Virus record (IMG/VR): IMGVR_UViG_3300015607_002611
Coordinates: 9,143-73,142 of that record
DNA from: a virus
Length of the DNA: 64,000 nt
Reading direction: 5' to 3' (one strand)
The first letter of the stretch is position 1. Every line of letters starts with the position of its first letter. The notes under the pieces were generated by a model. That model ran no database searches, was not told where the DNA came from, and worked only from the letters and a program-made list of their open reading frames with translations. The translations under genes and the position numbers were made by a program. Positions 39,743-57,681 of the stretch are shown piece after piece.

Positions 39743-39764
39743 AGCCTTAGAGAAATCTAAGGCT
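39743..39764 (+). promoter_or_regulatory. Stem-loop (AGCCTTAGA-gaaa-TCTAAGGCT) abutting promoter -33 element; no U-run
   Basis: 9-bp perfect stem. The 3' arm runs into CTTTGGGG. Confidence 0.4.
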
Positions 39765-39794
39765 TTGGGGTGTCGATAAGTTAAGTTATATTTA
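39764..39794 (+). promoter_or_regulatory. Bacteroidetes-type promoter CTTTGGGG-N-TTATATTTA
   Basis: TTTG at 39764-67, 19 nt, then TATATTTA at 39787-94. The ATG is at 39813. Confidence 0.55.
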
Positions 39795-39812
39795 TACTAT
39801 AACAATCACAAC

Positions 39813-41024
39813 ATGGAAAAGACAATAGAATTTAAAGGTGACTTTTACGCAAAATCACCAGAAGAATTTAAACAAATTAAAATCGCAGCTTTAAAGGCTG
39901 GATATAAAGGAATAGAAATGTCGAATGGCCCTCGTGAGAAATCATCTGGTCGTGGTCAATTCTTAACACTTGAAGCACCTCGATATGAGCGTAAAGGTAA
40001 ATGCGGATATTGTGGTTCTTTAATCGATATTTGTGGTATTTATGCGCATGGTAGAAAATGCGAATGCTGTGGTAAAACTATTTATCAAAAATACGAAAAG
40101 GGAGGTTTAATCACATTCTTCTTTCGTGATTTTGAAGATGGTAATAAAGTCGATATATTCGGTGATATCACGTTGCGCATTCATAGTTTTGAAACTGATA
40201 AAAATATTTTAAGATTTGAAATGAATATCCCACGTGATGGCAAATATGGGAAACAAAAACGTTCAAGAGTTTTAGAAATTCTTAAAAACAACCGTTCAGC
40301 ATATAACATTATTGAAATTGGTAAAAAGAAAGTTTACACATTCTATTACCCATTTAATGGTATGATGAATGATTTAACTCGAATTAATACAAGTGAAGTT
40401 AGAAATCGCAAAGGCGGTCATCCAAGTGGACCTCGTAATTGTTCAGTAGTTCAAATTTTGGATGGTAAAGAATATTCTGAACATGCATCATTCAGTGGTA
40501 TATTTGCTGAATTACCAATGCCTACTTCATTCCATATTTACCGCGATTGGAAAATTGAAAAAACAATGTCGACAATGTGTAGTCGTTCAGGTATTAATTT
40601 ACGTCCTGAATATTATTCTGGTCGTTCAGCTGGTGATATCACTTCTGACCATTTATTTAAACTTTATAATCAAATAAAAGATAATAAGGGTGAAAATGCA
40701 AGTAAAGCCTTCTTAAAATTAATTGAAGGTACTTATGATTTGTCTGCTACTAATTTAACAAGAAAGTTCATAAAACTTGAAAGAAATAATTATGAATGGT
40801 CTGATTCAGAAAATACTGAAAAAGAAACTAATGTTGAATTAGATGGTAGTTCAGTAAATGCATTTGCAACTATCGTAAGTGTAATGAGTGGCCCATATGG
40901 ACGCGCATTTACTAATCGTGTTTTCGGTGATGAACTTGGCGATATGATTGATGGAATGAAGAGAAAACATAAAGATTATCAATCTGCAATGATTAAAAGT
41001 GAATTCTTATCAAAATTAAAATAA
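39813..41024 (+). CDS. Hypothetical protein with zinc-ribbon
   Basis: 'CGYCGSLIDICG...CECCGK'. Confidence 0.35.
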   Translation: MEKTIEFKGDFYAKSPEEFKQIKIAALKAGYKGIEMSNGPREKSSGRGQFLTLEAPRYERKGKCGYCGSLIDICGIYAHGRKCECCGKTIYQKYEKGGLITFFFRDFEDGNKVDIFGDITLRIHSFETDKNILRFEMNIPRDGKYGKQKRSRVLEILKNNRSAYNIIEIGKKKVYTFYYPFNGMMNDLTRINTSEVRNRKGGHPSGPRNCSVVQILDGKEYSEHASFSGIFAELPMPTSFHIYRDWKIEKTMSTMCSRSGINLRPEYYSGRSAGDITSDHLFKLYNQIKDNKGENASKAFLKLIEGTYDLSATNLTRKFIKLERNNYEWSDSENTEKETNVELDGSSVNAFATIVSVMSGPYGRAFTNRVFGDELGDMIDGMKRKHKDYQSAMIKSEFLSKLK

Positions 41025-41025
41025 A

Positions 41026-41340
41026 ATGAAAAAGATTGCAATATTATTTTTATCAACTATTTTGTTTTCATGTAATGTTACTGAGACACGTAGAGTTGAT
41101 ACGCAAATAACTATAGAAGTTACATATACAAATGGTGAAATTGATACGTTAACTCCAATATGGAATTCAGACGTTGGTGATTTGCCTCAATGTTATTTAG
41201 AAAGTAATAGAGGTGATGCTTGTGTATGTATTACAAGTCATGGTGAATTAGGCTTACAAAGACTAGCTTGTGGTGTAAGAAAAATAAAAGAGCTTTCAAG
41301 AAAAGAAGTTAATTCAAATGAATCAACAAGTAATAAATAA
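41026..41340 (+). CDS. Putative lipoprotein
   Basis: Signal peptide with lipobox 'ILFLSTILFSC'. Confidence 0.5.
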   Translation: MKKIAILFLSTILFSCNVTETRRVDTQITIEVTYTNGEIDTLTPIWNSDVGDLPQCYLESNRGDACVCITSHGELGLQRLACGVRKIKELSRKEVNSNESTSNK

Positions 41341-42178
41341 AGAAAAATTAGAGTATTTAAAGACTTATATAACTACTTTCGCTAGGGCTTATATGTTGGC
41401 GACTGGTAAAAAACTTACCACTGTTGACCAAATATTAGAACTTATCGAAAGTGGTGAGTTTACATTTGAAGATATGTTTGATGTTTACTTAGGTGAGGCT
41501 TTTAAATATGGTGATTTATCTGAAGAAGCTGAAAAGTTTTGGGATTATAATATGGAAGCATTTAATGTTGAAAATTATTTTCCAGATGATAGTAAACAAG
41601 TTGGAAGTGGTTCTTGGATAAAAATAAGAACTGAGAATGGTTACGAAGTTCATTTTGCTAAAGTATCAAATCGTAAAAGAAGATTTGCTGAAGAGTATAC
41701 TTCATATCAAAAACAAATAACTTCTTTATATAAAGGCTTAATTAAAGATTACGAAGATTATACTAAAAAAATCGATGAAATACTTACTCCTGCAAAAGAA
41801 GCTAAGAAAAAATATTTAGATGCAAAATTAAGAGAAAGTGAGATACGTTTAGCTATAAACTTAAAGCCTTATGAGGTTAGAATAAATAGAACTAAAAGTA
41901 AAGTTGAGTATCTTTTACCATATCAATATGAAATTGTGAATGATATTCAAGAACATGTTGATGCTTATATTGCAAATACACCAGGTGTTAACACTAAAAC
42001 TTTATTTACATCACTTAATAAAGATGCAATATTCTATTTACAAAGTAGAGGTATAAGTAAAAAAGTAGCTGAAATGATGTCAGCATTGCAACAAGTTTAT
42101 TTTACTGTAGATATGGTAGTTGCCACGAATGCATATAATGAACATATAAAAAGAAAAGTTAAAATAGTAAGCGCATAA
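41318..42178 (+). CDS. Hypothetical protein
   Basis: ORF only. Confidence 0.3.
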   Translation: MNQQVINKEKLEYLKTYITTFARAYMLATGKKLTTVDQILELIESGEFTFEDMFDVYLGEAFKYGDLSEEAEKFWDYNMEAFNVENYFPDDSKQVGSGSWIKIRTENGYEVHFAKVSNRKRRFAEEYTSYQKQITSLYKGLIKDYEDYTKKIDEILTPAKEAKKKYLDAKLRESEIRLAINLKPYEVRINRTKSKVEYLLPYQYEIVNDIQEHVDAYIANTPGVNTKTLFTSLNKDAIFYLQSRGISKKVAEMMSALQQVYFTVDMVVATNAYNEHIKRKVKIVSA

Positions 42179-42180
42179 TT

Positions 42181-43035
42181 ATGAAAATGCATACACTTAA
42201 ACAATCGTATAGTAACTGTAAAATATATCACCCTTCTGGAAAACTAATGTGCGTTAATTCTGAAAAGAAAGGGCGTTGGTATGTAGAGAAAACTGGTGCA
42301 ACAATATTAAGTAAAAATCCAGATGGAAGTTTAGCTGAAATACAATTAACATTTGAGCCGAAGGGCCATGGTTACGATGAAGATGATTTATTTGGTTTAA
42401 GTGTACAAGAAGCAAGATGTGTAGTTTCCGGTGAAAGTGATATTTCAAAATTAACAAAACACCATATTGTGCCAATATCATATAGAAGGCATTTACCTCT
42501 TGAATATAAAAGTCGTAACCACCATGATGTCGTTTATATTACTGAAGATTTACATGAACATTATGAGAGAATTGCTGATGAATTCCGTAATGAATTAGCT
42601 AAGAAATATAATGCAATGTCATATAGTGATACTAGAGTACATTTAGCAAATGCCATGTCTAGTGAACGTGTCAGACTTATAAAAAGAGTAAAAGGTTATG
42701 CTAACTCATTAATAATTTCTAGTCAGATTCCTTCAGATAAGGAACAGTTAATGAAAGATACAGTGTTATCATTTATCAAAGATAATTATACAGCTATAAG
42801 TCTAGAAAACTGTTTAAGTGAAGAGTTTTTAACATTACTTATTTATGATATCCAGAAAGAGATTGATGAAGTTTTAGAAGCTAATCGAATTGATGCTTAT
42901 AAAGATTTAATTGACAAGGTTGGCGATTATGATGAATTCGTTAAAATCTGGCGTCAGCATTTCGTAGATACCATGAAACCTCAGTTTTTACCAATAGGCT
43001 GGAGTGTTGATTATAAAACTAAAACCAGAATATAA
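42181..43035 (+). CDS. Hypothetical protein (weak HNH-like His cluster)
   Basis: 'HHIVPISYRR...NHHDVV...DLHEHY'. Not convincing. Confidence 0.25.
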   Translation: MKMHTLKQSYSNCKIYHPSGKLMCVNSEKKGRWYVEKTGATILSKNPDGSLAEIQLTFEPKGHGYDEDDLFGLSVQEARCVVSGESDISKLTKHHIVPISYRRHLPLEYKSRNHHDVVYITEDLHEHYERIADEFRNELAKKYNAMSYSDTRVHLANAMSSERVRLIKRVKGYANSLIISSQIPSDKEQLMKDTVLSFIKDNYTAISLENCLSEEFLTLLIYDIQKEIDEVLEANRIDAYKDLIDKVGDYDEFVKIWRQHFVDTMKPQFLPIGWSVDYKTKTRI

Positions 43036-43052: not shown

Positions 43053-43083
43053 TTTGGGGGCTCGACAATAATTATTATATTTA
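43053..43083 (+). promoter_or_regulatory. Bacteroidetes-type promoter CTTTGGGGG-N14-TTATATTTACT
   Basis: TTTG at 43053-56, 19 nt, then TATATTTA at 43076-83. The ATG is at 43098. Confidence 0.55.
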
Positions 43084-43097: not shown

Positions 43098-43562
43098 ATG
43101 AAAAAAGTATTAGTAATAAGTAAACGCGAGTTTGATAAAGTAATGCGCGATAATAAAATCACTGCAGAAAATATCGAAAATAGAAGTAAAGTCGCATTTA
43201 TTTCTATTAATGATACTTTCGGCACAACTGAAACACCTTTCTTTAAAGAAGACAAGGAAAATTTGCGCATCTTGTTTTTTGATGATGTTACTGAAGATAC
43301 CAAGTTAAATTGGGGCACAGCAAAAGCATTTAACAAAGAACAAGGTAAAATTGTTTTAGAATTCTTAAACAAAATCAAGGATCGCGATACATTAATAGTA
43401 CACTGTCACGCTGGAATTTCTAGGAGTGGTGCAGTAGGTCAATTCGCTGCTGATTACTTTGGTTTAGATTACAAAGAATTCAGAAACTTAAACCCACACA
43501 TTCACCCTAATTCTACCGTTACAAGAATATTAAGAGAATTAGCTCGTGAACAAGAAGACTAA
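43098..43562 (+). CDS. Cys-based (CX5R) phosphatase, dual-specificity/polynucleotide-phosphatase-like
   Basis: P-loop 'VHCHAGISRSG'. Confidence 0.75.
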   Translation: MKKVLVISKREFDKVMRDNKITAENIENRSKVAFISINDTFGTTETPFFKEDKENLRILFFDDVTEDTKLNWGTAKAFNKEQGKIVLEFLNKIKDRDTLIVHCHAGISRSGAVGQFAADYFGLDYKEFRNLNPHIHPNSTVTRILRELAREQED

Positions 43563-44577
43563 CATATTATTATCAAGGGACGAATTCAGAGAAGGTGTTT
43601 TTGAGAGAGATGGGCATAAATGCGTTGTTTGTAAAGAGCAAGGCAAAGATGCCCATCACATTCTCGAAAGAAGATTATTCAATGACGGTGGTTATTATTT
43701 AGATAACGGAGCAACGTTATGTGAAAAACATCATATTGAAGCTGAACAGACAACATTAAGTTGTGATACTATCAGAGAGCTTTGTGGTATTGAAAACTTA
43801 ATCATACCTGAACATTTTTACTCTGACTATGATTATGATAAATGGGGTAATATTATTCAGCCTAATGGATTGAGATTAAAGGGTGAATTGTTTTATGATG
43901 AATCAGTTCAGAAGATATTAAATCAAGGTAATGTTTTGAATTTATTTCAAAAATATGTAAAATATCCAAGAACTTATCATTTACCATGGAGCAATTTACT
44001 TAAAGACGATAGAAAATTAAGTGACGATTCATTCTTTCATGGAAAGAGAGTTATAATGACACTTAAAATGGATGGTGAAAATACAACAATGTATAATGAT
44101 TATATTCATGCACGTTCTTTAGAATCTAAGTCACATGAAACTAGAAATTGGGTCAAAGGCCTTTGGTCTAGAATCTCATATCTTTTAGATGAGAATATGA
44201 GATTATGTGGAGAGAATTTATATGCTGTTCATTCAATTGAATATAATGATTTACCTTCATATTTCATGCCATTCTCATTATGGATGGACAATAAGTGTTT
44301 AAGTTGGGATGAAAGTGTAGAGTACTTTAAAATTTTAGGTTTAGAACATGTTCCAGTTATCTATGATGGAATTTATGATAAAGATAAAATCATTGAAACA
44401 TTTTCTAAATATGAAAAAGAACACGAAGGCTTCGTAATTAGAATTGCAGATGAATTCAATTATGGTGAATTTAGAAGATGTGTCGCTAAATTCGTTAGAC
44501 CTGAGTTTAGACAAATAGTTAATAATTCACATGGTCACTGGATATCAAAGAAAGTGACTGTAAATAAATTAAAATAA
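43546..44577 (+). CDS. HNH/zinc-finger domain fused to ATP-dependent nucleotidyltransferase ligase (RNA-ligase-like)
   Basis: N-terminal 'CVVCKEQGKDAHHILERRLF...NGATLCEKHH' is HNH-like. Ligase motifs are I 'LKMDGEN', III 'LCGENLYAVHS', IV 'HEGFVIRIA' and V 'AKFVRPEF'. Confidence 0.6.
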   Translation: MNKKTNILLSRDEFREGVFERDGHKCVVCKEQGKDAHHILERRLFNDGGYYLDNGATLCEKHHIEAEQTTLSCDTIRELCGIENLIIPEHFYSDYDYDKWGNIIQPNGLRLKGELFYDESVQKILNQGNVLNLFQKYVKYPRTYHLPWSNLLKDDRKLSDDSFFHGKRVIMTLKMDGENTTMYNDYIHARSLESKSHETRNWVKGLWSRISYLLDENMRLCGENLYAVHSIEYNDLPSYFMPFSLWMDNKCLSWDESVEYFKILGLEHVPVIYDGIYDKDKIIETFSKYEKEHEGFVIRIADEFNYGEFRRCVAKFVRPEFRQIVNNSHGHWISKKVTVNKLK

Positions 44578-44578: not shown

Positions 44579-44974
44579 ATGAAAACTTCATTTGATATGG
44601 ATAATACACTTGGCGAATCATGGGTGCAATTAATTGCTAAAGCCATGATTGCAGGTGGTCATGAAGTTTGGATTATAACTGCGAGATGTGATGATAGATT
44701 ACATAATCCGAATATTGCAAAAATTAATTCATGTAATAGAGACCTTTTCGCAATTGCTGAAAGGTTAGGAATTCCTGATGAAAGAATTGTAATGACTGAA
44801 GGTTCATTTAAACATAAAACTATTAAAAGGCTTGGAATTGAATTACATTTCGATGATGTACCAGAAGAAGTTGAGTTAATTAATCGAAATACAGACTGTA
44901 AAGCTCTTTTAATTTGGGACGAATTTTGTTCAGCGTCAATAAAACATGAACAATTTGCAAAAGGAATATTTTAA
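44579..44974 (+). CDS. Small HAD-like phosphatase
   Basis: Motif I 'SFDMDNTLG', 'WIITAR' and 'HFDD'. Confidence 0.45.
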   Translation: MKTSFDMDNTLGESWVQLIAKAMIAGGHEVWIITARCDDRLHNPNIAKINSCNRDLFAIAERLGIPDERIVMTEGSFKHKTIKRLGIELHFDDVPEEVELINRNTDCKALLIWDEFCSASIKHEQFAKGIF

Positions 44975-45003
44975 GAGAGTATATAATAAAATAATTTATT
45001 AAA

Positions 45004-45252: not shown

Positions 45253-45256
45253 TCCG

Positions 45257-45279
45257 AAGCCTCGATATAATCGAGGCTT
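45257..45279 (+). promoter_or_regulatory. Stem-loop (AAGCCTCGAT-ata-ATCGAGGCTT) abutting promoter -33; no U-run
   Basis: 10-bp perfect stem whose 3' arm supplies the CTTTGGGGG element. Confidence 0.4.
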
Positions 45280-45308
45280 TGGGGGCTTAAGAAAAATAAT
45301 TATATTTA
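45278..45308 (+). promoter_or_regulatory. Bacteroidetes-type promoter
   Basis: TTTG at 45278-81, 19 nt, then TATATTTA at 45301-08. This string is identical to the 43053 promoter over 'TTATATTTACTTAAA'. Confidence 0.55.
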
Positions 45309-45325
45309 CTTAAAATCATAAAACC

Positions 45326-45445: not shown

Positions 45446-45456
45446 AAAATTAAAAA

Positions 45457-46623
45457 ATGGAACTAGCATTAATAAATGAAATAAAAAGATTTGGACTAGA
45501 AAAGACTGCAGAAACTTACAAACTTTCTGTGAAGGATTATGGTCATAAAGTACTTATTAAGTACGACCAAATTGAATCTGACATGTCTGAACTTCCTGTA
45601 CAAGACGCAAGAGGTATAATCCTTGAGAAAGGTACTTGGAAAGTTATGTCTTTAGCTTTTAGAAAATTTTTCAACTCAGCCGAAACACAAGCCGCTAAGA
45701 TAGATTGGGATTCAGCTTTGATTTTAGAAAAGTTAGATGGAACATTAATTCAATTATACTGGGACTGGGTTTTAAAAGAATGGTGCGTAGGTACTACAGG
45801 TACTGCCGATGGTTCAGGTGAAGTGAATAACAAATTTGGGACTACATTTGCAGACTTGTTCTGGTCTACTATTGGAAAATATCCTGGTAAATTCCACGGT
45901 GTTGATAAAATGTCAAAAAATGAACGTAACGAACGTTTAAATGAATTTTTAAACGATAACTTTTGTCATGTTTTTGAATTAACTACACCTTATAATATTG
46001 TGGTTGCACCCCATGCTACATCTAACGCTACTTTGTTGGCTGCAAGAAATGTTATTACTCTTGAAGAACTTTCATTTGATAATCTAGCAGGGACTGCAAT
46101 TGAGTTAGATGTTCCTTTAGTAAAAGTGTTTGATATAAATGCTTCGAACACAGGTCATGTAATAGCTACATTGGAAGGTATGCCTTTCTCTGAAGAGGGA
46201 TATGTAGTAGTTGATAATAAATTTAATCGTATCAAGATTAAGAACCCTACATATGTTCAAGTACATCACTTGAAGTCAAAGACTTCTGAGCATGCTATAA
46301 TGGAAATTGTTAAGACTAATGAAGTTGAAGAATTTGCGGCGACATTTCCTGAAAGACGTGAAGAAATCTTTAAGCTTAAAGATGGGTTTGATAAATTAAA
46401 AGAATCATTAAAGGAAACTTGGAATGAATTAGAACCATTTAAGCCTCGTATTATCACTAAAGAAGAGAATAAGAGATTTGCAATGGCAGTTTTTGATATT
46501 ACAGGAAAGAAAGGTTGTAAAAATCATACAGGTTTATTTTTCTCTTTAAAAGATGGTAAAGTAGGAAGTGTAGAAGAATACCTTAAAGATTACGACAATA
46601 AAAAATTATATACAGAACTATAA
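45457..46623 (+). CDS. ATP-dependent RNA ligase (Rnl1-like nucleotidyltransferase)
   Basis: Motif I 'LILEKLDGTLIQ' (KxDG), motif IV 'EEGYVVVDN' and motif V 'RIKIKNP'. 388 aa. Confidence 0.65.
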   Translation: MELALINEIKRFGLEKTAETYKLSVKDYGHKVLIKYDQIESDMSELPVQDARGIILEKGTWKVMSLAFRKFFNSAETQAAKIDWDSALILEKLDGTLIQLYWDWVLKEWCVGTTGTADGSGEVNNKFGTTFADLFWSTIGKYPGKFHGVDKMSKNERNERLNEFLNDNFCHVFELTTPYNIVVAPHATSNATLLAARNVITLEELSFDNLAGTAIELDVPLVKVFDINASNTGHVIATLEGMPFSEEGYVVVDNKFNRIKIKNPTYVQVHHLKSKTSEHAIMEIVKTNEVEEFAATFPERREEIFKLKDGFDKLKESLKETWNELEPFKPRIITKEENKRFAMAVFDITGKKGCKNHTGLFFSLKDGKVGSVEEYLKDYDNKKLYTEL

Positions 46624-47191: not shown

Positions 47192-48223
47192 ATGGAATTT
47201 AAAAAATATAATGAAATAGAAAACTCTTACAGGGATGCTTTCATGAATAGGATTAATACTATGATTGCAGAAGGTCATGTTGAGAATGACTTTGTCGTTC
47301 TTGAAAAAGTACATGGTTCTAACTTCTCTTTCTGGTATGACGGTGAAACATTAAAGACAGGTAAGAAATCTGGATTCGTAGGAGGTGAAGGTGAGGACTT
47401 CTTTAATTCTCATATTATTAAAGCTAAATACGCTAATAATATTAAAAATTTATATGAACACTTTAATTTGAAATTTGGTAAAATTACCAATATGACAGTT
47501 TACGGTGAATTATGTGGTGGTTATTACCCAGGTGTAAAAAGTGATGACCCTTCTATTAAGAAAGTACAAAGTGGAGTTTGGTACTCTCCTAATTTAGAAT
47601 TTTATGCTTTTGATATTACAGTAGATGGGAAATACTTAAATGCAGATGATGTATCTATGTTATGTAGAGCATTTGACATTTTCCATGCTAAGATATTATT
47701 CAGAGGTAAATTAGAAGATTGTATGAAATATCCAAATGAATACAACTCTTTAATTTCTGGATGGTTAGGTTTACCTGAAGTTGAAGGTGGTAATATCTGT
47801 GAAGGTAATATCATTAAACCTAACAAAGCTGTATTCTTCCATAATGGCTCTAGAGTTATTATCAAGAACAAAAATGATAAGTGGTCTGAAAAAGAAAAGC
47901 CTGCAGGAAATAAAGAAAAGAAAGAAAGACCAAATTTATCTGAAGCCGGTAATAAAGTATTAGAAGAAGCTTTAACTTATGTAACTGATAATAGATTAAA
48001 GAACGTTCTTTCTAAATGGGAAGGTCCAGTTACAAGTAAAGACTTTGGTCGTTTAATGCAATTAATGAATGTTGATGCATTAGAAGATTTACATAAAGAC
48101 TTTGGCCCTGAATTATTAGCTTTAGAAAAGGAAGAAATTAAGTTAATTAACAAATCTATTGGTAATAAGGCTTCTATTTTAATAAGGAAAAACTTTTTAA
48201 ATATAATCGATAATAATTTCTGA
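47192..48223 (+). CDS. RNA ligase 2 family (Rnl2-like)
   Basis: Motif I 'VLEKVHGSNFSF' (compare T4 Rnl2 EKIHGTNFS), motif III 'VYGELCGG', motif IV 'EGNIIKP' and motif V 'VIIKNK'. 343 aa. Confidence 0.75.
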   Translation: MEFKKYNEIENSYRDAFMNRINTMIAEGHVENDFVVLEKVHGSNFSFWYDGETLKTGKKSGFVGGEGEDFFNSHIIKAKYANNIKNLYEHFNLKFGKITNMTVYGELCGGYYPGVKSDDPSIKKVQSGVWYSPNLEFYAFDITVDGKYLNADDVSMLCRAFDIFHAKILFRGKLEDCMKYPNEYNSLISGWLGLPEVEGGNICEGNIIKPNKAVFFHNGSRVIIKNKNDKWSEKEKPAGNKEKKERPNLSEAGNKVLEEALTYVTDNRLKNVLSKWEGPVTSKDFGRLMQLMNVDALEDLHKDFGPELLALEKEEIKLINKSIGNKASILIRKNFLNIIDNNF

Positions 48224-48528: not shown

Positions 48529-48735
48529 ATGGCAATAAATTTTTGGGTTCATAAACATGATTTGGACCATTTAAACAAGCTTTTGAAAAAGCCATTACCA
48601 GATATAAATGACGATGATTATATTCTTGAAGTTTATATGCAAAGTAAGAACGGATGGCTCCAAAACAATTACTTCCAGGTGGGTATAAGCTATGAAGACT
48701 TCATGAGAATTGAAGGATATTTAGATTTCGTATAA
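48529..48735 (+). CDS. Small hypothetical protein
   Basis: ORF only. Confidence 0.25.
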   Translation: MAINFWVHKHDLDHLNKLLKKPLPDINDDDYILEVYMQSKNGWLQNNYFQVGISYEDFMRIEGYLDFV

Positions 48736-49127
48736 TGGCTGAAACCGATTTTCTATATATGAATAAGAAAACCCTAGGTTATATCTTAGATTGGTGCGTA
48801 AATGAATACGGTCATTCTAAACATGTTACACATGGTTTACTTAAATATAAAATAAATTATCGGTGCATACCTAAAGGTTGGTTTAAATCAGCTGAAGTTA
48901 TGATTGAAGTTAATCCGAAAAATCATACGAGTTTAATTGATTTTGTACATACTGCAATACATGAGTATACACATTATATGCAAGACCAAGACTTATATGA
49001 TAAGTACTCTGAAGAACATGATGATGATACTAATCCATTGGAAATTGAAGCTGATATGGTAGCAATGAGAGATAAGAAAAGATGTTTAAGAAAAATTAAA
49101 AAGTTAATAGAAGAAGATGAAAGATAA
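48735..49127 (+). CDS. Putative HExxH zinc metallopeptidase-like protein
   Basis: 'VHTAIHEYTHYMQD'. Confidence 0.35.
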   Translation: MAETDFLYMNKKTLGYILDWCVNEYGHSKHVTHGLLKYKINYRCIPKGWFKSAEVMIEVNPKNHTSLIDFVHTAIHEYTHYMQDQDLYDKYSEEHDDDTNPLEIEADMVAMRDKKRCLRKIKKLIEEDER

Positions 49128-49896
49128 TTTGGGCGACCGTATAAAAAACAACTACGAAGATAGAACGAGATTTTCTTTACCTCGTAGAACATATACAATT
49201 ATTAGATTAGATGGTAAAGCATTCCACACTTATACAAGAGGATTGGAAAAACCATTTGATATGGATTTAATCAATGATATGGCGGAAGCTACTAAATATC
49301 TTTGTGAAAATATCCAAGGTTGTATTTTAGGTTATACACAGAGTGATGAGATTTCACTTTTATTAACTGACTTTGAGAAGCCAGGGACAAGTGCATGGTT
49401 TGATGGTAATATTCAAAAGATGGCAAGTATTTCAGCTTCAATGGTTACAGCTAAGTTTAATGATATTAGAAGAGGGCGTGAGGCTCACAAGAATATTGCA
49501 TTATTTGATAGTAGAGTATTTACAATATCTGATAGAATTGAAGTAATGAACTATTTTATTTGGAGACAGAAAGATGCTACACGTAACTCAATAAGTATGG
49601 CAGCACATGCATTATGTGGCCACAAGGCTTGTATGGGTAAATCAAGCTCTGATAAGCAAGAAATGATTTTCCAAAAAGGTGTTAATTGGAATGATTATCC
49701 AACATCTTGTAAAAATGGAACAATGATTACAAAAAAGACTGGTGTTATGAAGAATCTTAATCCTAAACCAGGGCAACCTGAGATGTATGAAAGAAGCTTC
49801 TGGCAAATTGAAGGTGCTAAAAACTTTAGAACATTTTTGCCTAAATTTTTACCTACAATGAAAGTTGAATTAGAAGACAATGATGTTTTATCTTAA
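49117..49896 (+). CDS. Thg1-like protein (tRNA-His guanylyltransferase family, 3'-5' nucleotidyltransferase)
   Basis: 'IIRLDGKAFHTYT' (Thg1 VRLDGRNFH), 'GYTQSDEISLLL' (AYGQSDEYSFVF) and 'MNYFIWRQKDATRNSISMAAHAL' ([23 protein letters not shown]). Confidence 0.8.
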   Translation: MKDNLGDRIKNNYEDRTRFSLPRRTYTIIRLDGKAFHTYTRGLEKPFDMDLINDMAEATKYLCENIQGCILGYTQSDEISLLLTDFEKPGTSAWFDGNIQKMASISASMVTAKFNDIRRGREAHKNIALFDSRVFTISDRIEVMNYFIWRQKDATRNSISMAAHALCGHKACMGKSSSDKQEMIFQKGVNWNDYPTSCKNGTMITKKTGVMKNLNPKPGQPEMYERSFWQIEGAKNFRTFLPKFLPTMKVELEDNDVLS

Positions 49897-49905: not shown

Positions 49906-50661
49906 ATGTATACTAAAAATGAACTAGCAAATTTTATAGCATTTGACTTAGAAACAGCAAGTGGTTATAAAGACCTTGATACTCTTAATGAAGAAAACCC
50001 TCGTTTAGGTGAATTATGGAATAAACGTTGTGAATATCTTCGTACAAAACATGATGATAATAAGCCTTTAACAAATGCTGAGATATATGAACAGAAAACA
50101 GGTTTACAAGCGGAATATGGCAAGATTGTATGTATTAGCATCGCATATGTTAGATATAATAAGGATAATCAGCCCGTAATTAAATCTAAAAGCTTTAAAA
50201 GCCATGATGAAAAAGAATTATTAGAAGCTTTCTTTAATTTTTTAACATCAGCTAAAGACAAATTACCAAATGCAGTATTCTGTGGCCATAATATTAAAAG
50301 ATTTGATATTCCATTTTTATGTAAGCGTGCATTAATTAATGGTTTAAAAGTACCAGCTCAATTTAATACTATTGGAAAGAAACCATGGGAATTAAGTATT
50401 GTTGATACTGCTGAACTTTGGTCGTTTGGTGCATGGCAAGAATCTTTCACTTCTTTAGACACTTTAACAGCAGTATTAAATATTCCATCACCTAAAAGTG
50501 ATATTGATGGAAGTAAAGTATCAGAAGTGTTCTGGCAAGAAGGTGATTTAGATAGAATCGCTAAGTATTGTGAACAAGATGTTGCAGCTACTATTAATGT
50601 ACTTATAGCATTATCTGGATTTGAAATAGCAGAGCCTAGCAACATTACATCTGTTGAATAA
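49906..50661 (+). CDS. DnaQ-like 3'-5' exonuclease (DEDDy)
   Basis: Exo I 'IAFDLETAS', Exo II 'CGHNIKRFDIPFL' and Exo III 'YCEQDVAAT'. Confidence 0.75.
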   Translation: MYTKNELANFIAFDLETASGYKDLDTLNEENPRLGELWNKRCEYLRTKHDDNKPLTNAEIYEQKTGLQAEYGKIVCISIAYVRYNKDNQPVIKSKSFKSHDEKELLEAFFNFLTSAKDKLPNAVFCGHNIKRFDIPFLCKRALINGLKVPAQFNTIGKKPWELSIVDTAELWSFGAWQESFTSLDTLTAVLNIPSPKSDIDGSKVSEVFWQEGDLDRIAKYCEQDVAATINVLIALSGFEIAEPSNITSVE

Positions 50662-51011
50662 TGGAAATACATTACGCTGAAACATTTACAGCTACGATTT
50701 ACTGTGGCTTTAAACCAGGATATGATGGAATGGAAGACTATGAATCAATGAGTCTTGCTGAAGTTGTATGCCAGGAGTATTGTAATAAATATGGCGCTGG
50801 TTTTACAATTGAACCAACTAAATTCATTTATACTAATGGTAGAGAAAATGGAGTTAAAATAGGTTTAATTAATTATCCTCGATTTCCTAAAAGACCTATT
50901 GAAATTAAGAATATCGCAATTCAGATTGCAGCTGAACTAAAGGAAGTATTTAAACAACATCGAGTTTCAATTGTATGTAGCGATGAAACTATAATGATTG
51001 GTGAAAAATAA
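50661..51011 (+). CDS. Hypothetical protein
   Basis: ORF only. Confidence 0.3.
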   Translation: MEIHYAETFTATIYCGFKPGYDGMEDYESMSLAEVVCQEYCNKYGAGFTIEPTKFIYTNGRENGVKIGLINYPRFPKRPIEIKNIAIQIAAELKEVFKQHRVSIVCSDETIMIGEK

Positions 51012-52420: not shown

Positions 52421-53125
52421 ATGTACATTTATAAAATTACGTGTTTGATTAATAATAAAATTTATATTGGAAAAACTGAAAAGAATATAGATGAAAGATT
52501 AATTAATCATTTTAATAAGGCAAAAAGTGGAAAATCTAAAATGTTAATTTCTAAAGCTATATTAAAGTATGGTTTTGAAAATTTTAAAATAGAAGTAATT
52601 GAAAAATGTTTAGATATTTCATCATTAAATCAAAGAGAAATTTATTGGATTAAAGAATTTAATTCTATTAATAAATTAATAGGATATAATTGTACATTAG
52701 GTGGTACTGGTGGAGATACTTATACAAATAATCCTAATTATGATTTAATATGTGAAAAACATAAAATTATCATGTTAAATGAAAGTTCTGAAATGAAAGA
52801 AAAAAGAACTAAAAAATTAAAAGGATTAATTAGAAAAAAATCAACATGTAAAGCAATTTCTAAAGCTAGAAAAGGAATGATGTTTACAGAAACACATAAA
52901 AATAATATAAGTATTAAAACTAAAGAAGCTATGCGAAGTTTAAATATTTATAATATAAAACCTGTAGATTGTTATGATTTAGATAATAATTATGTTAAAA
53001 CATTTAAAAGTTTAGCTGAAGCTTCAAGGGAATTAAATATTGGTAAAATGTCAATTTTTAAAAATTGCAATGGTAAAAGAAATAAAGCCGGTAATTTTAT
53101 TTTTAAATATTCAAATGACATTTAA
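52421..53125 (+). CDS. GIY-YIG homing endonuclease
   Basis: 'MYIYKITCLINNKIYIGKTEKNIDERLINH', NUMOD-like 'AISKARKGMMFTETHKNNIS' and a C-terminal HTH-like region. Confidence 0.85.
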   Translation: MYIYKITCLINNKIYIGKTEKNIDERLINHFNKAKSGKSKMLISKAILKYGFENFKIEVIEKCLDISSLNQREIYWIKEFNSINKLIGYNCTLGGTGGDTYTNNPNYDLICEKHKIIMLNESSEMKEKRTKKLKGLIRKKSTCKAISKARKGMMFTETHKNNISIKTKEAMRSLNIYNIKPVDCYDLDNNYVKTFKSLAEASRELNIGKMSIFKNCNGKRNKAGNFIFKYSNDI

Positions 53126-53312
53126 ACATGGCATAACAGGTAATTATTATGTAACCAGTTTGGAGAAATCTGAACTGGTTATTGTTTGTAGAGCTATTGG
53201 TAAATCTGAAGCTTCAATTAAATGGCACGAAAAGTATAATTGTTGGGTTTTTAGAGTTAAAGAAAAAGCAATGAAGAAAAAACTTAAAGAATACTTTGGG
53301 AGTATATCATAA
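53115..53312 (+). CDS. Small hypothetical protein (66 aa from internal ATG of track ORF 53040..53312)
   Basis: The ATG at 53115 overlaps the HE stop by 11 nt. The upstream part of the track ORF lies inside the HE gene in another frame. Confidence 0.3.
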   Translation: MTFKHGITGNYYVTSLEKSELVIVCRAIGKSEASIKWHEKYNCWVFRVKEKAMKKKLKEYFGSIS

Positions 53313-53339
53313 TTTGTTAGATTTATCAAAAGAATAAAT

Positions 53340-53651
53340 ATGAAAAAATTAATAGCATTATTAATGCTTATATTCGTATTAAATACGACATACGCGCAAA
53401 AACGACAAGGGTACAGTGAACGAGATAAATCGACAAGTGTTGGATTAGTAGTAGGTGGTGTTGCATTTACAACGGCAGCATTCTTAGAAGGTCCACAAAA
53501 CTATGGAACTTGGAAACATAATCCTAATAGTACGAGCCAATATAATATGACTTATGTTACACCTTCATTTTGGCAACAAACGCCTAGAAATATAATGTTT
53601 GTAGTAGGTATAACAGTTACAATAACAGGATTAATAACATTAAAAAAATGA
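53340..53651 (+). CDS. Secreted/membrane protein
   Basis: Signal peptide 'MKKLIALLMLIFVLNTTYA' and C-terminal TM 'IMFVVGITVTITGLITL'. Confidence 0.45.
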   Translation: MKKLIALLMLIFVLNTTYAQKRQGYSERDKSTSVGLVVGGVAFTTAAFLEGPQNYGTWKHNPNSTSQYNMTYVTPSFWQQTPRNIMFVVGITVTITGLITLKK

Positions 53652-54397
53652 AAAATAATAAAATGAACTTTGCTGTCATAGGGGACGTGCACGGAAATTG
53701 GAATTCCATGTATAGACTTATTGAACATAAAAATATTAAAAATGCCTTATTAATACAATTAGGTGACTTTGGTGTGGGTTTTATAAGTAAACATCAAGAT
53801 AGAAAAAATCTCGAATTTTTAAACGAAAAGCTTGCTAAAAGAAATATTATCATGTATGCAATACGTGGTAATCATGATGACCCTTCTATGTTTAAGGGTG
53901 ATTATGTATTTAGTAATTTAAAACTTGTCGATGACTATACAGTTATTGAAGCTCCTAATGGGGATAAAATAGCAATGTTTGGTGGAGCTTTGTCAATTGA
54001 TAGAAAACCACGTATTGCTGAAATGACTGAGTATTCTAAATATAATCTTGATAGAGAGACTTATTGGTATGATGAGAATTTTGTATTGAATGAAGAGTTG
54101 GCTAAAAAGATAACAGGATGTAAATATGTAATTACACATACATCTCCAGATTTTTGCTGGCCTGATAATAAAAATGGATTTGGACCTTTAGTCGAGCATT
54201 TTATTATGTTAGGTGATAAAAAATTAAAAGAAGAATTACCACATGAACGTGCACAATTAACTAAACTTTATAATATACTTAAAGAAAATAATCCTATTGA
54301 AAAATGGTTTTATGGTCATTTTCACAGAACTGAATTAACAGTGCATAATGGAATTGAGTTTCATTTATTAGATATTAACGAAATAAAAGAAGTATAA
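53648..54397 (+). CDS. Calcineurin-like metallophosphatase (Ser/Thr- or polynucleotide-phosphatase-like)
   Basis: 'FAVIGDVHGNW' (GDxHG), 'LGDFGVGF' and 'RGNHDDP' (GNHD/E). Confidence 0.75.
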   Translation: MKNNKMNFAVIGDVHGNWNSMYRLIEHKNIKNALLIQLGDFGVGFISKHQDRKNLEFLNEKLAKRNIIMYAIRGNHDDPSMFKGDYVFSNLKLVDDYTVIEAPNGDKIAMFGGALSIDRKPRIAEMTEYSKYNLDRETYWYDENFVLNEELAKKITGCKYVITHTSPDFCWPDNKNGFGPLVEHFIMLGDKKLKEELPHERAQLTKLYNILKENNPIEKWFYGHFHRTELTVHNGIEFHLLDINEIKEV

Positions 54398-54398
54398 A

Positions 54399-54524
54399 AT
54401 GATAAGAAATTTTTTAGAAAGCCTTTGGGATAATTTATTTAGACCTGTTTTAACATCAACATTTTTCTGGGCAGCTACTGTTGCTGCAGGATTAACTTAT
54501 TTAATAACTCATTCTAATGGATAA
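54399..54524 (+). CDS. Small hydrophobic ORF (41 aa; below track cutoff)
   Basis: The ATG follows the upstream stop by 1 nt. The ORF ends overlapping the next ATG (ATGGATAA). Hydrophobic 'FFWAATVAAGLTYLI'. Confidence 0.35.
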   Translation: MIRNFLESLWDNLFRPVLTSTFFWAATVAAGLTYLITHSNG

Positions 54525-54846
54525 AAATATAGAAAGAATTATCTGTGCTGCAAATCATTATGATGATGGTGAAGAACATGTACATATGCCTCGTAATATT
54601 AAAACAGGATTTGTAATATGTGGCCGAAGACACCATAATTGTATTTCAATATTTGCATTAATGGTTGGATTCCCTTATGATGAAAAAGGGATAGCTTTAA
54701 TGAATACTGAAGAGCAGGGTTTTTTAACAAGTAAAGATAGATTTGTAAATAGAACTGAAGCTTTAGAAATAGCAAGAAAGGCTAATCAAATCTTAGACGA
54801 AAAAGAAGTTAGAGGCGATAAATTATACAGTGAAGATTTATATTAA
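54517..54846 (+). CDS. Hypothetical protein
   Basis: ORF only. Confidence 0.3.
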   Translation: MDKNIERIICAANHYDDGEEHVHMPRNIKTGFVICGRRHHNCISIFALMVGFPYDEKGIALMNTEEQGFLTSKDRFVNRTEALEIARKANQILDEKEVRGDKLYSEDLY

Positions 54847-55025
54847 TGAAACGAATAAATCGTAAAAAATTAATAATTGAATTGGAATTCCTAAGACAAG
54901 GATTTGCGGATGCAATAATGGAAGCTAAACGTAATAAAGATGAAGTTGCTGAAATAACTTTTAAAGCACATCATTGGAATGCTAATCGATTAATTGTAGA
55001 ATTAGGTGGTGAAAGTGTATTATGA
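54846..55025 (+). CDS. Small ORF (59 aa; below track cutoff)
   Basis: TAATG overlap upstream and ATGA overlap downstream. It fills a 175-bp apparent gap. Confidence 0.4.
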   Translation: MKRINRKKLIIELEFLRQGFADAIMEAKRNKDEVAEITFKAHHWNANRLIVELGGESVL

Positions 55026-55495
55026 TAACAAAAGTAATATTTTTAGATATTGATGGGGTATTAAATGTATATCCACAAGGCCATGATGAGTATGGTGCAA
55101 TTTGGCATGACCACTTTGTAAACAATCTAAAAAGAATTATTGATGCAACTGATGCTAAAATTGTTATTAGTACATGGAGAATGTCAGGTCTTTTAGTTAT
55201 GAAAGAAATGTGGGCTAAACGTGGTTTACCTGGTCGTGTAGTTGATATTACACCTAACCACATGGTAAGAACTGGAAGTACTTTACAAAGAGGTAAAGAA
55301 ATTGACGAATATTTATCATATAATCCTGAAATTACACATTACGTAATTTTAGATGATGATGAAGATATGGAACCCCATCAAATGGATAATTTTGTCAAAA
55401 CATCAGGTAACGTAGACCACCCTGATTGTGTTGATGTGGGTTATGGATTAACAGATATATGTACTGATAGGGTTATAGCTATTTTAAATAAATGA
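55022..55495 (+). CDS. NT5C-like HAD 5'-(deoxy)nucleotidase
   Basis: Motif I 'VIFLDIDGVLNV' (DxDGV as in NT5C 'VDMDGVL'), 'VISTWR' and 'ILDDDED'. Confidence 0.55.
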   Translation: MITKVIFLDIDGVLNVYPQGHDEYGAIWHDHFVNNLKRIIDATDAKIVISTWRMSGLLVMKEMWAKRGLPGRVVDITPNHMVRTGSTLQRGKEIDEYLSYNPEITHYVILDDDEDMEPHQMDNFVKTSGNVDHPDCVDVGYGLTDICTDRVIAILNK

Positions 55496-55758: not shown

Positions 55759-55761
55759 TAC

Positions 55762-55792
55762 TTTGACGATTCAAATCTTTTGGTTATATTTA
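55762..55792 (+). promoter_or_regulatory. Bacteroidetes-type promoter
   Basis: TTTG at 55762-65, 19 nt, then TATATTTA at 55785-92. The ATG is at 55797. Confidence 0.5.
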
Positions 55793-55796
55793 ACCA

Positions 55797-56318
55797 ATGA
55801 TAAACGTTAAAGGTATTATACACTTCGATCCCCTCCCATTAACTACGAAGCATAAAAAGCAAGCGAAATGGAAGAATCATGCTAATGTCCAATTAAATTG
55901 CGAATTAGATAAGTATTATGCTTGGTTTGTTAAAACTCGATATAACGTAAAATTAAATCCTCCTCAGCGCGGACCTCATGTCAGCTTTATTGCAGATATA
56001 GTTTCAAATCCAGAACTTTATAAAAAAGTAATGGAGAAGTGGAATAAAAAAGAAATTGAATTTACGTATGATACTAATGTTCGCACTAATGGTGAAGATT
56101 GGTGGTTAAGAGTTTATTCTAAAGATTTATTAGATATTCGAGAAGAAGCTGGTTTACCACGTAATCCATTTTTTAATTTACATTTAACAATTGGATACGC
56201 TGCACCTCGATTAGATAAAGATGGTAATGAAATGGGTGGTTCTAATCTTGAACATTCAAGATATATCCATGAAATAATTAAGCGTTATGAATTTGATACC
56301 CCAAGGAAATTAACATAG
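55797..56318 (+). CDS. 2H-phosphoesterase family protein (LigT / 2',3'-cyclic phosphodiesterase-like)
   Basis: Two HxS/Tx motifs: 'GPHVSFIA' and 'NLHLTIGY'. Confidence 0.55.
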   Translation: MINVKGIIHFDPLPLTTKHKKQAKWKNHANVQLNCELDKYYAWFVKTRYNVKLNPPQRGPHVSFIADIVSNPELYKKVMEKWNKKEIEFTYDTNVRTNGEDWWLRVYSKDLLDIREEAGLPRNPFFNLHLTIGYAAPRLDKDGNEMGGSNLEHSRYIHEIIKRYEFDTPRKLT

Positions 56319-56319
56319 T

Positions 56320-56350
56320 CTTTGGGGTTCAAATCAAATTTTATAAATTT
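56320..56350 (+). promoter_or_regulatory. Bacteroidetes-type promoter
   Basis: TTTG at 56320-23, 19 nt, then TAAATTTA at 56343-50. The ATG is at 56369. Confidence 0.5.
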
Positions 56351-56368
56351 ACATAATAAACTAATAAC

Positions 56369-56749
56369 ATGATAAACTTTGAACAATTTAAAAATTACGT
56401 CGATGCTTTGTCAATAGATGAGCAATCCAAAAAGGATTTGATTGTTCTGGTGACTCCTTGTTTTGACTTTAGAGACTTTCTAAAAAAGAAGTATGGTTTA
56501 GAAGATGACCAAATCGAAAACTTAATTCAGTTGAAGATTGCAGCAGGTCGTGATTATATTTATAAAGACTTAGAACTTTTAGATGTTGCCGACTATACTC
56601 ATGCTCTTATTGCTAGAATGTCGAAAGTTGTTACTGAATTCGCTAAAGAAGAAAAATATGAACACGCAGAATCTCTTGAAATTGCGCTAAAGAAGGTTAT
56701 GTTAATCGGTGTACAAAATCACACACAAATTCGAGAAGCCCTGAATTAA
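56369..56749 (+). CDS. Hypothetical protein
   Basis: ORF only. Confidence 0.3.
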   Translation: MINFEQFKNYVDALSIDEQSKKDLIVLVTPCFDFRDFLKKKYGLEDDQIENLIQLKIAAGRDYIYKDLELLDVADYTHALIARMSKVVTEFAKEEKYEHAESLEIALKKVMLIGVQNHTQIREALN

Positions 56750-56750
56750 C

Positions 56751-56781
56751 TTTGGGGGATATCGAAATCTTGTTATATTTA
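56751..56781 (+). promoter_or_regulatory. Bacteroidetes-type promoter
   Basis: TTTG at 56751-54, 19 nt, then TATATTTA at 56774-81. The ATG is at 56801. Confidence 0.55.
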
Positions 56782-56800
56782 ACTAATCAATAAAATCAAC

Positions 56801-57256
56801 ATGAAAGTAAATTTAGATACCGAATTATTCGCAGTAGTAAATACTAAAACCAATGAATTAGTTCCAAGATATACAGGTGGCTTTTTCTGGACAAGAAGAG
56901 GTGATGCGGAAAGAAAATTTGATGAAATGCTCAGGAAAGCATCGCATTATAGTTTAATGGTTTGTAAATTAAATGTGACTGAAATGCTATCAGGCCCACA
57001 AATCATGGAAGAAAGACGAATCGCTGCAGAAAAGGCCGCAGAGATTGCAAGACAAAAAAGAGAAGCTGAACAGCTTAGAAATCAAAGAATCGAAGAACTT
57101 AAAAATGAACTTAAAGAATTGACAGGTCAAAGAGAACTGGATATTCCAACTATTAAAACATTCTTAGTCAGTAACTTAATTGTACCTGACTATAAAGTTA
57201 AAATTGAAAACGTTCTTAACGAACTAAGCACTTTAAATTATTCAAAAGTACGATAA
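56801..57256 (+). CDS. Hypothetical coiled-coil protein
   Basis: Charged helical middle region. Confidence 0.3.
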   Translation: MKVNLDTELFAVVNTKTNELVPRYTGGFFWTRRGDAERKFDEMLRKASHYSLMVCKLNVTEMLSGPQIMEERRIAAEKAAEIARQKREAEQLRNQRIEELKNELKELTGQRELDIPTIKTFLVSNLIVPDYKVKIENVLNELSTLNYSKVR

Positions 57257-57681
57257 TGAAAAAAGCACTATTTTTATTAAGAGGTTTGCCTGGAAATGGT
57301 AAGACAACCGCTGCAGAAATTCTTTCTGAAGCCCCTGGCATCATGCCTTACCCTGTATATTCTGCTGATGACTATTTTTACGAAAATGGTCCAAATCCTG
57401 GTCAATATGACTTTAACAGGGAAAAACTAGGTGCTGCACATAAACAATGTCAAGACAGGACTGAATTAGCAATGAAGTCTGGTGTAGAAAAAGTATTTGT
57501 GGCCAACACATTTACTACTGATAAAGAAATTAAGCCTTATAAAGAGCTTGCAGAAAGATACGGTTATATGTTGATGTCAATAATTGTTGAAAACCGTCAT
57601 GGCAACAAATCAATACATGGTGTTCCTGAGGAAACGATGGAAGCTATGGAAAAACGTTTTACTGTTAAGTTAAGAGGTTAA
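57256..57681 (+). CDS. P-loop kinase, polynucleotide-kinase-like
   Basis: Walker A 'LLRGLPGNGKTTAA' (compare T4 Pnk GCPGSGKST). 141 aa, kinase domain only. Confidence 0.55.
   Translation: MKKALFLLRGLPGNGKTTAAEILSEAPGIMPYPVYSADDYFYENGPNPGQYDFNREKLGAAHKQCQDRTELAMKSGVEKVFVANTFTTDKEIKPYKELAERYGYMLMSIIVENRHGNKSIHGVPEETMEAMEKRFTVKLRG

Follow-up and report, generated by a model that had tools for sequence, protein, structure and literature searches.

A condensed block of predicted RNA-repair genes in an uncultured Bacteroidota-type phage

We analysed 64,000 nucleotides of viral DNA (positions 9,143 to 73,142 of IMG/VR record IMGVR_UViG_3300015607_002611), referred to here as the window, and focused on an 18 kb block at 39764-57681 that carries approximately 31 genes on the same (+) strand. 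At least ten of these genes belong to RNA-end-processing families, far above what was seen in the other scanned parts of the window. The block is probably an accessory region of an uncultured tailed phage, with a conserved core that would serve as a multi-route RNA (chiefly tRNA) repair toolkit against host ribonuclease defences. Behind this reading are the families to which the proteins belong, their intact catalytic motifs, and a gene order and promoters that relatives have kept. The locus is an unusually condensed new example of a toolkit that has already been described, from a Bacteroidota-type phage, and not a new system. All eleven enzyme classes listed in the original prediction were found on the + strand within the block. 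Profile (hidden Markov model, HMM) searches recovered the ligases, the Thg1-like protein (TLP), the exonuclease, the nucleotidyltransferase, the metallophosphatase, the HAD_SAK_2 phosphatase and the kinase, and the set is indeed broader than the Pnkp and Rnl1 pair of phage T4.

Enzymes of the RNA-repair core

Pfam assignments given here are scores above the curated gathering thresholds unless a protein is said to fall below the cut-off. PHROG matches agree with the Pfam assignments across the block, and an NCBIfam search of the block proteins added no further names. Catalytic residues, read at their motif positions, are intact in the three ligases, the TLP, the exonuclease, the RlaP-family nucleotidyltransferase and the phosphatases. 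The leaning towards RNA repair that had been proposed for the set is supported by the families themselves: RlaP, HAD_SAK_2, 2H-SAK and the PTP-SAK-like phosphatases are all defined through an association with RNA repair (SAK, "Swiss Army Knife").

Three RNA ligases are encoded. The Rnl1-type ligase matches PF09511 (RNA_lig_T4_1; 52.3 bits, cut-off 28.3) and phrog_562 (140 bits over residues 31-378), and its lysine motif aligns with the ILTKEDGSL motif of the T4 Rnl1 chain 2c5u. The Rnl2-type ligase matches PF09414 (RNA_ligase; 76 bits) and the C-terminal domain PF18043 (T4_Rnl2_C; 65 bits), both over a 27-bit cut-off, and phrog_548 over its full length (244 bits). The third ligase is fused to an N-terminal HNH domain. 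It matches PF09414 at residues 168-317 (103 bits) and the "RNA ligase" family phrog_24030 at full length (residues 8-343, 420 bits), and nine HNH PHROGs match within residues 10-112, where the CxxC..HH..N..CxxHH motif is present (CVVC at 26, HH at 37-38, N54 and CEKHH at 59). Pfam found only PF09414 and not the Rnl2-type C-terminal domain PF18043 in this protein, and a PDB sequence search gave no match to it. We assign the HNH-ligase to the Rnl2 superfamily, of which it is a predicted member and not a T4 Rnl2 orthologue.

The TLP matches PF04446 (Thg1) with 99.5 bits (cut-off 29.2), and its catalytic carboxylates lie in RLDGKAF (D32) and QSDEIS (D77 and E78). Its best PDB match is the Bacillus thuringiensis TLP (BtTLP) 4kgk (206 bits over residues 3-207), against 61 bits for the Thg1-like chain 5axk and 36-56 bits for tRNA(His) guanylyltransferase chains. 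The protein is thus predicted to be of the repair-type bacterial TLP class and not a G-1-adding Thg1. BtTLP prefers 5'-truncated tRNAs of several kinds in vitro, a preference known for BtTLP only (PMC3701042). The match to BtTLP is strong over the catalytic domain, with the carboxylates conserved; the phage protein differs in that its C-terminal ~50 residues lie outside the match and in that its gene is operonic with ligase, exonuclease and RlaP genes.

The nucleotidyltransferase had been predicted as a minimal Pol-beta enzyme. The family call was correct and the size was not, as the protein is a 390 residue RlaP with a large C-terminal region (PF10127, 69 bits, cut-off 23; phrog_388, 195 bits). 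RlaP enzymes add one or two nucleotides to the 3'-OH of damaged RNA, are needed to restore aminoacylation of heavily damaged, repaired tRNA, and used only RNA from cell extracts (PMC12776372). The RlaP gene shares a promoter-delimited unit with the Rnl1 and Rnl2 genes, as it also does in a relative (locus L072). The stand-alone DEDDy exonuclease matches PF10108 (DNA_pol_B_exo2; 74.7 bits, cut-off 24) and phrog_25228 (133 bits), and the Exo I, II and III motifs, including Yx3D, are all present.

Several candidate end-healing enzymes accompany the ligases. The HAD_SAK_2 phosphatase matches PF18143 with 87.2 bits (cut-off 27.5). Its gene adjoins the 2H phosphoesterase gene here and in L072, and is one gene away from it in two distant phage contigs (L073 and L074). 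The 2H protein itself has the two HxT/S motifs on a duplicated fold, and PDB sequence searches with the single sequence and with a profile found no match to it. The calcineurin-like metallophosphatase matches PF00149 (50.3 bits, cut-off 21.5) and phrog_1649 (82 bits), and a PDB sequence search gave no match. The CX5R phosphatase matches phrog_5614 (71 bits) and has weak PDB matches to dual-specificity phosphatases (DSPs); its motif places it at the level of superfamily membership only.

The small P-loop kinase matches AAA_33 (36 bits), phrog_2071 (154 bits) and the "polynucleotide kinase" family phrog_505 (29 bits). As a single sequence it is barely similar to T4 Pnk, with no significant match; a profile of 31 homologues, in which K16 and D38 are invariant, matches T4 Pnk (1ly1) with an E-value of 6e-5 over residues 3-106, which is nearly the full length. 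Other matches to the profile include the fungal kinase 9d8a, Pnkp1 (4xrp, E-value 0.004) and the kinase chains 4gp7 and 4jst (deposited as "metallophosphoesterase"), all of which rank above most other kinases; among the weaker matches are nicotinamide riboside kinase and PFK-2 kinases. We describe the predicted protein as Pnk-like, and the spacing of its Walker A lysine and catalytic aspartate is as in Pnk.

Together these enzymes suggest a pathway, for which we infer each substrate from family membership, and likewise the order of steps. The 2H esterase would open a cyclic phosphate, after which the adjacent SAK-type HAD would remove the remaining phosphate, with the metallophosphatase and the CX5R phosphatase as possible alternative routes of phosphate removal. 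The Pnk-like kinase would phosphorylate the 5'-OH. RlaP would re-add one or two nucleotides lost from the 3' end before sealing, the TLP would refill acceptor stems truncated at the 5' end, with the 3' strand serving as template, and the DEDDy exonuclease may trim damaged 3' ends. Rnl1 would seal breaks in the anticodon loop and Rnl2 would seal nicks in duplex regions. The HNH-fused ligase would be a later add-on, with a nuclease domain that may explain its mobility. The block would be transcribed from approximately seven host-type promoters.

Conservation, promoters and the HNH-ligase cassette

A nucleotide search of 50,697 phage records returned only a 62-nt match, so the phage has no annotated close relative. 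The same phage is present at 100% identity in several metagenome assemblies (longest contig 98 kb). Two divergent relatives (L075 and L076; contigs of 62 and 98 kb from other samples) have 50-80% protein identity to it. The order of genes kept in the relatives is NUDIX, 464-aa protein, 403-aa protein, 284-aa protein, CX5R phosphatase, HAD, Rnl1, Rnl2, HExxH protein, TLP and exonuclease, followed by the 116-aa protein, RlaP, membrane protein, metallophosphatase, Y16D, HAD_SAK, 2H, 126-aa protein, 151-aa protein and kinase. Approximately 25 genes, including all of the core enzymes, and their promoters are retained in order. This suggests that the core has been kept through substantial divergence. 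Identity to the relatives is 50-52% for the 403-aa protein, 60-62% for the 284-aa protein, 67-69% for the small HAD and 70-77% for the 130-aa HExxH protein.

Six exact copies of CTTTGGGG are present in the window, where 0.57 would be expected. A fuller form of the motif, TTTG-N19-TAnnTTTA, was found directly upstream of genes at eight + strand sites, of which seven are in the block and one is outside it (30493). Most of the repair genes had been predicted to sit behind promoters of the CTTTGGGG kind and to be early; the promoter-like sites are real and conserved in relatives, but they comprise all seven sites in the block and not the CTTTGGGG ones alone. The site at 39764 is kept at the orthologous position in L075 (9954) and L076 (9952), as are those at 43053 (13521 and 14136) and 45278 (14724 and 15334), while those at 55762 and 56751 are kept in L072 (9966 and 11883). 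The sites divide the block into units, the longest of which contains Rnl1, Rnl2, the TLP, the exonuclease and RlaP. The Bacteroidetes promoter consensus has TTTG at -33 and TAnnTTTG at -7 (as quoted in PMC2483708). The eight sites fit it, with a spacing of ~19 nt, except that TTTA replaces TTTG at the last base; a scan for E. coli-type promoters gave results at or below chance. Such host-type promoters are compatible with early expression, a timing that we infer.

Shine-Dalgarno sequences were not visible before the start codons, an absence described as usual in this phylum (PMC6847099). Among phages, RlaP and the exonuclease have their nearest homologues in those of Tenacibaculum, Cellulophaga, Flavobacterium and Prevotella. 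The promoter form, the absence of Shine-Dalgarno sequences and these homologues together suggest that the host is probably a member of the Bacteroidota, likely Flavobacteriia-like.

All three predicted ligases are present, but the third does not look like part of the core set, as the HNH-ligase gene is absent from both L075 and L076. In the relatives, the phosphatase gene overlaps, at its 3' end, the beginning of the HAD gene. In the window its overlap is with the HNH-ligase, at the GTG start codon, and the HAD gene begins one base after the ligase stop. The HNH-ligase therefore looks like a clean, self-contained cassette inserted exactly at the junction between the phosphatase and HAD genes. 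Three ligases are a feature of this lineage and the conserved core has two. A metagenome scan identified 58 loci with HNH-ligase homologues of up to 79-80% identity, many on contigs of 130-500 kb, whose 6 kb flanks contain none of the block's genes except a TLP gene in seven. In INPHARED the fusion occurs in 34 records (46-56% identity), mostly jumbo phages of unrelated hosts. At the one junction compared, the two relatives resemble each other more than either resembles the window; with only two relatives, gain and loss are not strictly separable. The unrelated surroundings of the nearest homologues favour gain, and horizontal acquisition, possibly driven by the cassette's own HNH nuclease, is the simplest account. 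Base composition was examined as a sign of recent transfer and gave no anomaly for the HNH-ligase gene (30% G+C); only the GIY-YIG gene at 52421 stands out (20%).

The seven loci with a TLP gene within a few kb of the HNH-ligase are L084-L087, L118, L130 and L133, and in L087 a LAGLIDADG-like gene lies between the two. This is weak evidence of linkage, as some of these loci may represent the same lineage.

Table 1. Annotated features of the block, in order of position. Relatives are L075 and L076; L066 is a sibling assembly.
Feature	Positions	Strand	Details
Promoter-like site, TTTGGGG-N-TATATTTA	39764..39794	+	18 nt upstream of 403-aa gene
403-aa orphan, CxxC...CxxC zinc ribbon	39813..41024	+	First block gene; no Pfam, PHROG or NCBIfam match
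Small predicted lipoprotein	41026-41340		Signal ending LFSC; absent from both relatives
286-aa orphan protein	41318-42178		Absent from both relatives
284-aa protein, HNH-like core and helical C-terminal domain	42181..43035	+	Large unnamed family
Promoter-like site	43053..43083	+	Before phosphatase / HNH-ligase / HAD unit
CX5R cysteine phosphatase, DSP / PTP-SAK-like	43098..43562	+	HCHAGISRS at 102-110 (C103, R109)
HNH and Rnl2-superfamily RNA ligase fusion	43546..44577	+	HNH at residues ~10-80; KMDGEN (K174), EGFVIR, AKFVR
Small HAD-like phosphatase	44579..44974	+	FDMDNT (D6, D8), ITAR, HFDD
Promoter-like site	45278..45308	+	Heads long Rnl1-to-RlaP unit
Rnl1-type (T4 gp63-like) RNA ligase	45457..46623	+	EKLDGT (K92), EGYVVV, IKIKN
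Rnl2-type RNA ligase with T4 Rnl2 C-terminal domain	47192..48223	+	EKVHGSN (K39)
130-aa protein, HEYTH (HExxH) metalloprotease-like motif	48735..49127	+	No family match
Thg1-like protein (bacterial TLP type, predicted 3'-5' nucleotidyltransferase)	49117..49896	+	D32, D77, E78 present
Stand-alone DEDDy 3'-5' exonuclease, PolB-exo type	49906..50661	+	FDLET, HNIKRFD, YCEQD
116-aa protein	50661..51011	+	phrog_4848; 67% identity in L072
RlaP-family Pol-beta nucleotidyltransferase, 390 aa	51218..52390	+	GS 19-20, DID 31-33
GIY-YIG / NUMOD1 homing endonuclease	52421..53125	+	Mobile insertion, outside repair set
Promoter-like site	53295..53325	+	Before membrane protein / metallophosphatase unit
Calcineurin-like metallophosphoesterase	53648..54397	+	GDVHG, GDFG, GNHD, GHFH
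109-aa T4_Y16D / phrog_839 protein	54517..54846	+	PF26092 precomputed for identical L066 protein
HAD phosphatase, Swiss Army Knife RNA-repair family	55022..55495	+	LDIDGV (D9, D11)
Promoter-like site	55762..55792	+	Before 2H gene
Divergent 2H phosphoesterase	55797..56318	+	HVSF (H61), HLTIG (H129)
Promoter-like site	56321..56351	+	Before 126-aa gene
Promoter-like site	56751..56781	+	Before 151-aa / kinase unit
Small P-loop Pnk-like kinase	57256..57681	+	GLPGNGKT (K16), SADDY (D38)

Alternative readings of the block

Several observations weigh against an RNA-repair toolkit. Approximately half of the ~31 block genes have no assignable function, and tRNA-gene and Rfam scans of the window found nothing. 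Three of the putative end-healing enzymes fall below Pfam cut-offs: the CX5R phosphatase (DSPc 25 bits against 33.5, PTP-SAK 18 bits against 27), the small HAD, whose HMM matches are weak and whose assignment follows its DxD, T and DD motifs, and the 2H protein. The 2H phosphoesterase was predicted correctly as such, but the RNA-end branch of its superfamily is not singled out, as the fold is as near to viral signal-degrading phosphodiesterases (2-5A phosphodiesterase, Acb1 and cGAMP phosphodiesterase) as to RNA cyclic phosphodiesterases. The exonuclease is the weakest link of the set. Its family is common in small Flavobacteriia phages (such as 35-kb Flavobacterium phages), and small phages of Cellulophaga and Flavobacterium carry its closest phage relatives, so the RNA role that had been proposed for it is suggested by adjacency alone. 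The kept gene order can be explained by descent alone among related phages. Finally, within 10 kb of 63 phage TLP genes the partner families are infrequent (Rnl2 at 8, kinase at 4, HAD_SAK at 3, HNH-ligase at 2 and the exonuclease at 1).

The strongest alternative, which we consider rather unlikely, is a mixed counter-defence island in which only the ligases, kinase, RlaP and TLP repair RNA, and the 2H, metallophosphatase, HAD, CX5R and NUDIX proteins destroy signalling nucleotides of host immunity (cyclic oligonucleotides, ADP-ribose derivatives or 2',3'-cyclic nucleotides) or dephosphorylate proteins. A NUDIX gene is conserved with the block just upstream of it, the metallophosphatase also weakly matches NinI-like Ser/Thr phosphatases, and 2H, calcineurin-like and Nudix enzymes are listed among counter-nucleotide systems by Iyer et al. 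2021 (PMC7824862). However, one of the HADs belongs specifically to the RNA-repair SAK family (87 bits), 2H-SAK is the Pfam family found in homologues of the 2H protein, and two separate lineages keep the 2H gene beside or close to HAD_SAK_2. The ATP-dependent ligases would also require end-healing partners, for which the window has no other candidates.

A bolder joint proposal, to which we give little credence, builds on RNA repair. The Rnl1-Rnl2-TLP-exonuclease-RlaP unit would be a dedicated machine that rebuilds both ends of tRNAs against an undescribed Flavobacteriia defence, and the HNH-ligase may spread as a homing cassette, its nuclease cutting ligase-less genomes at the phosphatase/HAD junction. 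Such a defence would truncate tRNA acceptor stems or 3' ends, beyond nicking of the anticodon loop, and the machine, if real, would be the first natural job for bacterial-type TLPs.

That the block instead serves DNA or nucleotide metabolism (repair of nicks, proofreading in replication, processing of broken DNA ends or dNMP turnover), with RNA repair incidental, is very unlikely. In its favour, DNA and DNA-RNA hybrids can also be substrates of T4 Pnk and of ligases of the Rnl2 type. The exonuclease consists of a PolB-type proofreading domain, has relatives in small phages and matches the PHROG "DNA polymerase exonuclease subunit", and two HNH-type nucleases are present in the block. Against this, Rnl1, Rnl2 with its C-terminal domain, the TLP, RlaP and HAD_SAK_2 are RNA-directed families, RlaP has the RNA preference noted above (PMC12776372), and no replication genes were found in the scanned parts of the window. 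It is equally improbable that the block is a mobile accessory-gene hotspot in which the grouping of RNA-end enzymes is insertion history and not a coordinated system, a view favoured by GIY-YIG genes at 33329, 36914 and 52421 and one inserted in L066, by the variable presence of the HNH-ligase among relatives and by TLP neighbourhoods that differ widely among phages, and opposed by the order kept across ~25 genes with their promoters at 50-80% protein identity and by the excess of RNA-end-processing genes over other scanned parts of the window.

Comparison with known systems and neighbouring genes

As a repair toolkit, the block shares its families and logic with the RNA-repair genes of jumbo phages. 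Iyer et al. 2021 (PMC7824862, section 3.4.9) describe jumbo phages as carrying Rnl1, Rnl2 and RtcB in any combination, with some Rnl2-family ligases having an N-terminal HNH domain, a distribution of RlaP that mirrors that of the ligases, and sporadic Thg1. In the same account, 2H, SAK-type HAD, PNK and calcineurin-like enzymes prepare the ends, and multiple ligases are inferred to answer different RNase effectors. The Caulobacter CcrSC group, Lak and Atu_ph07 phages carry both an HNH-ligase and a TLP; in CcrSC, however, these genes are ~55 kb apart, whereas here nearly the whole repertoire is in one 18-kb, promoter-punctuated, same-strand block. The longest assembled contig here is 98 kb, so jumbo status is unproven.

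TLP homologues were found in 164 of 50,697 phage records, with genomes of ~90 kb and larger among those listed, and RlaP homologues in 589. Neither the TLP-exonuclease pair nor the whole block recurs around other phage TLP genes at the 63 loci, one of which has the exonuclease. Annotated neighbourhoods in Tenacibaculum phage PTm1, Ralstonia phage RsoM2USA and Cellulophaga phage phi17:2 consist mostly of "hypothetical protein" entries and were uninformative. Because no comparable block was seen at the 63 TLP loci and several jumbo phages share the HNH-ligase and TLP, it is the compact clustering that is distinctive and not the gene content.

The block resembles the T4 system (Pnkp and Rnl1, acting against PrrC) in having a P-loop 5'-kinase with the same layout of Walker A motif and catalytic aspartate, a HAD-type phosphatase and an Rnl1-type ligase. 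It differs in that kinase and phosphatase are separate small proteins and not a fused Pnkp, in its many extra enzymes, and in its low similarity to the T4 proteins (Rnl1, 34 bits; kinase, 15 bits alone and 26 by profile). RtcB-RlaP-RtcA operons likewise associate RlaP with an RNA ligase (PMC12776372), and Pnkp1-Rnl-Hen1 complexes combine kinase, metallophosphatase and ligase against ribotoxin damage (PMC4411300). Unlike both, the block has no RtcB, RtcA or Hen1, its ligases are of the 5'-phosphate/ATP type, and its enzymes are encoded by separate genes with no characterised complex. RtcB, a CCA-adding enzyme, PTH2 and tRNA genes were not seen within the window.

The remaining block genes are less readily classified. 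The 403-aa, 286-aa, 130-aa, 126-aa and 151-aa proteins have no match in Pfam or PHROGs. Only 14 homologues of the 403-aa protein were found, with 69 invariant positions among them. The 284-aa protein has 1659 cluster representatives at E<=1e-3, with C80, H94, H95 and H125 invariant; four of 31 family members match HNH_2 weakly, and its structural model (pLDDT, predicted local distance difference test, 92.6) has as its only PDB likeness a local match of ~55 residues to the IscB HNH domain. The 130-aa HExxH gene overlaps the start of the TLP gene by 11 nt; no copy of it turned up close to other phage TLP genes.

Within 20 kb there are three GIY-YIG homing endonuclease genes (33329-34075, 36914-37633 and 52421-53125); comparison with the relatives covered those at 36914 and 52421, and both are missing there. 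The sibling assembly L066 was compared over 3659-4933 with the window at 44905-46150 and is 100% identical on both sides. An additional GIY-YIG gene separates its small HAD and Rnl1 genes, and the opening ~270 nt of its Rnl1 gene are only 83% identical, which looks like homing-associated co-conversion, a reading limited by two 100-N gaps. A truncated Rnl1 in L066 was considered and rejected, as the apparent deletion corresponds to these scaffold gaps.

The window has a G+C content of 29-31%, and nearly all of its convincing open reading frames are on the + strand. Just upstream of the block (37630-39520) are a NUDIX hydrolase gene (67 bits) and a gene for a 464-aa orphan, both conserved in both relatives. 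Further upstream (27950-30489) lies an argininosuccinate synthase-like gene (196 and 183 bits; weak match to QueC), with a gene of the fumarate-lyase family (Lyase_1, 139 bits) after it. Both relatives keep the pair, with a short open reading frame between its members; such a combination, metabolic or for base modification, is unusual in a phage. The regions 11778-20700 and 31164-35750 encode a GDP-mannose 4,6-dehydratase (378 bits), a glycosyltransferase-like protein, SPFH/Band 7 and ATP-grasp proteins. These sugar-nucleotide, SPFH/Band 7 and ATP-grasp genes suggest a long accessory arm. The distant contig L073 (a 201-kb phage-like contig, ENA ERZ27250635; 2964-10528) encodes an IF3 homologue and has an RNase P protein-like gene directly upstream of HAD_SAK_2, followed by an open reading frame of 126 aa and the 2H homologue.

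The literature already covers every component and the concept as a whole, so what the locus offers is a good model rather than a new principle. If the RNA-repair reading is correct, the locus would be a compact natural test bed, with almost all classes of enzymes that heal, rebuild and seal RNA ends brought together in one conserved, promoter-defined block, in phages of the Bacteroidota, a host group with barely explored tRNA-targeting defences. It could then reveal which ligase answers which damage, what role TLPs have in the conflict between bacteria and phages, and how mobile the HNH-ligase fusion is.

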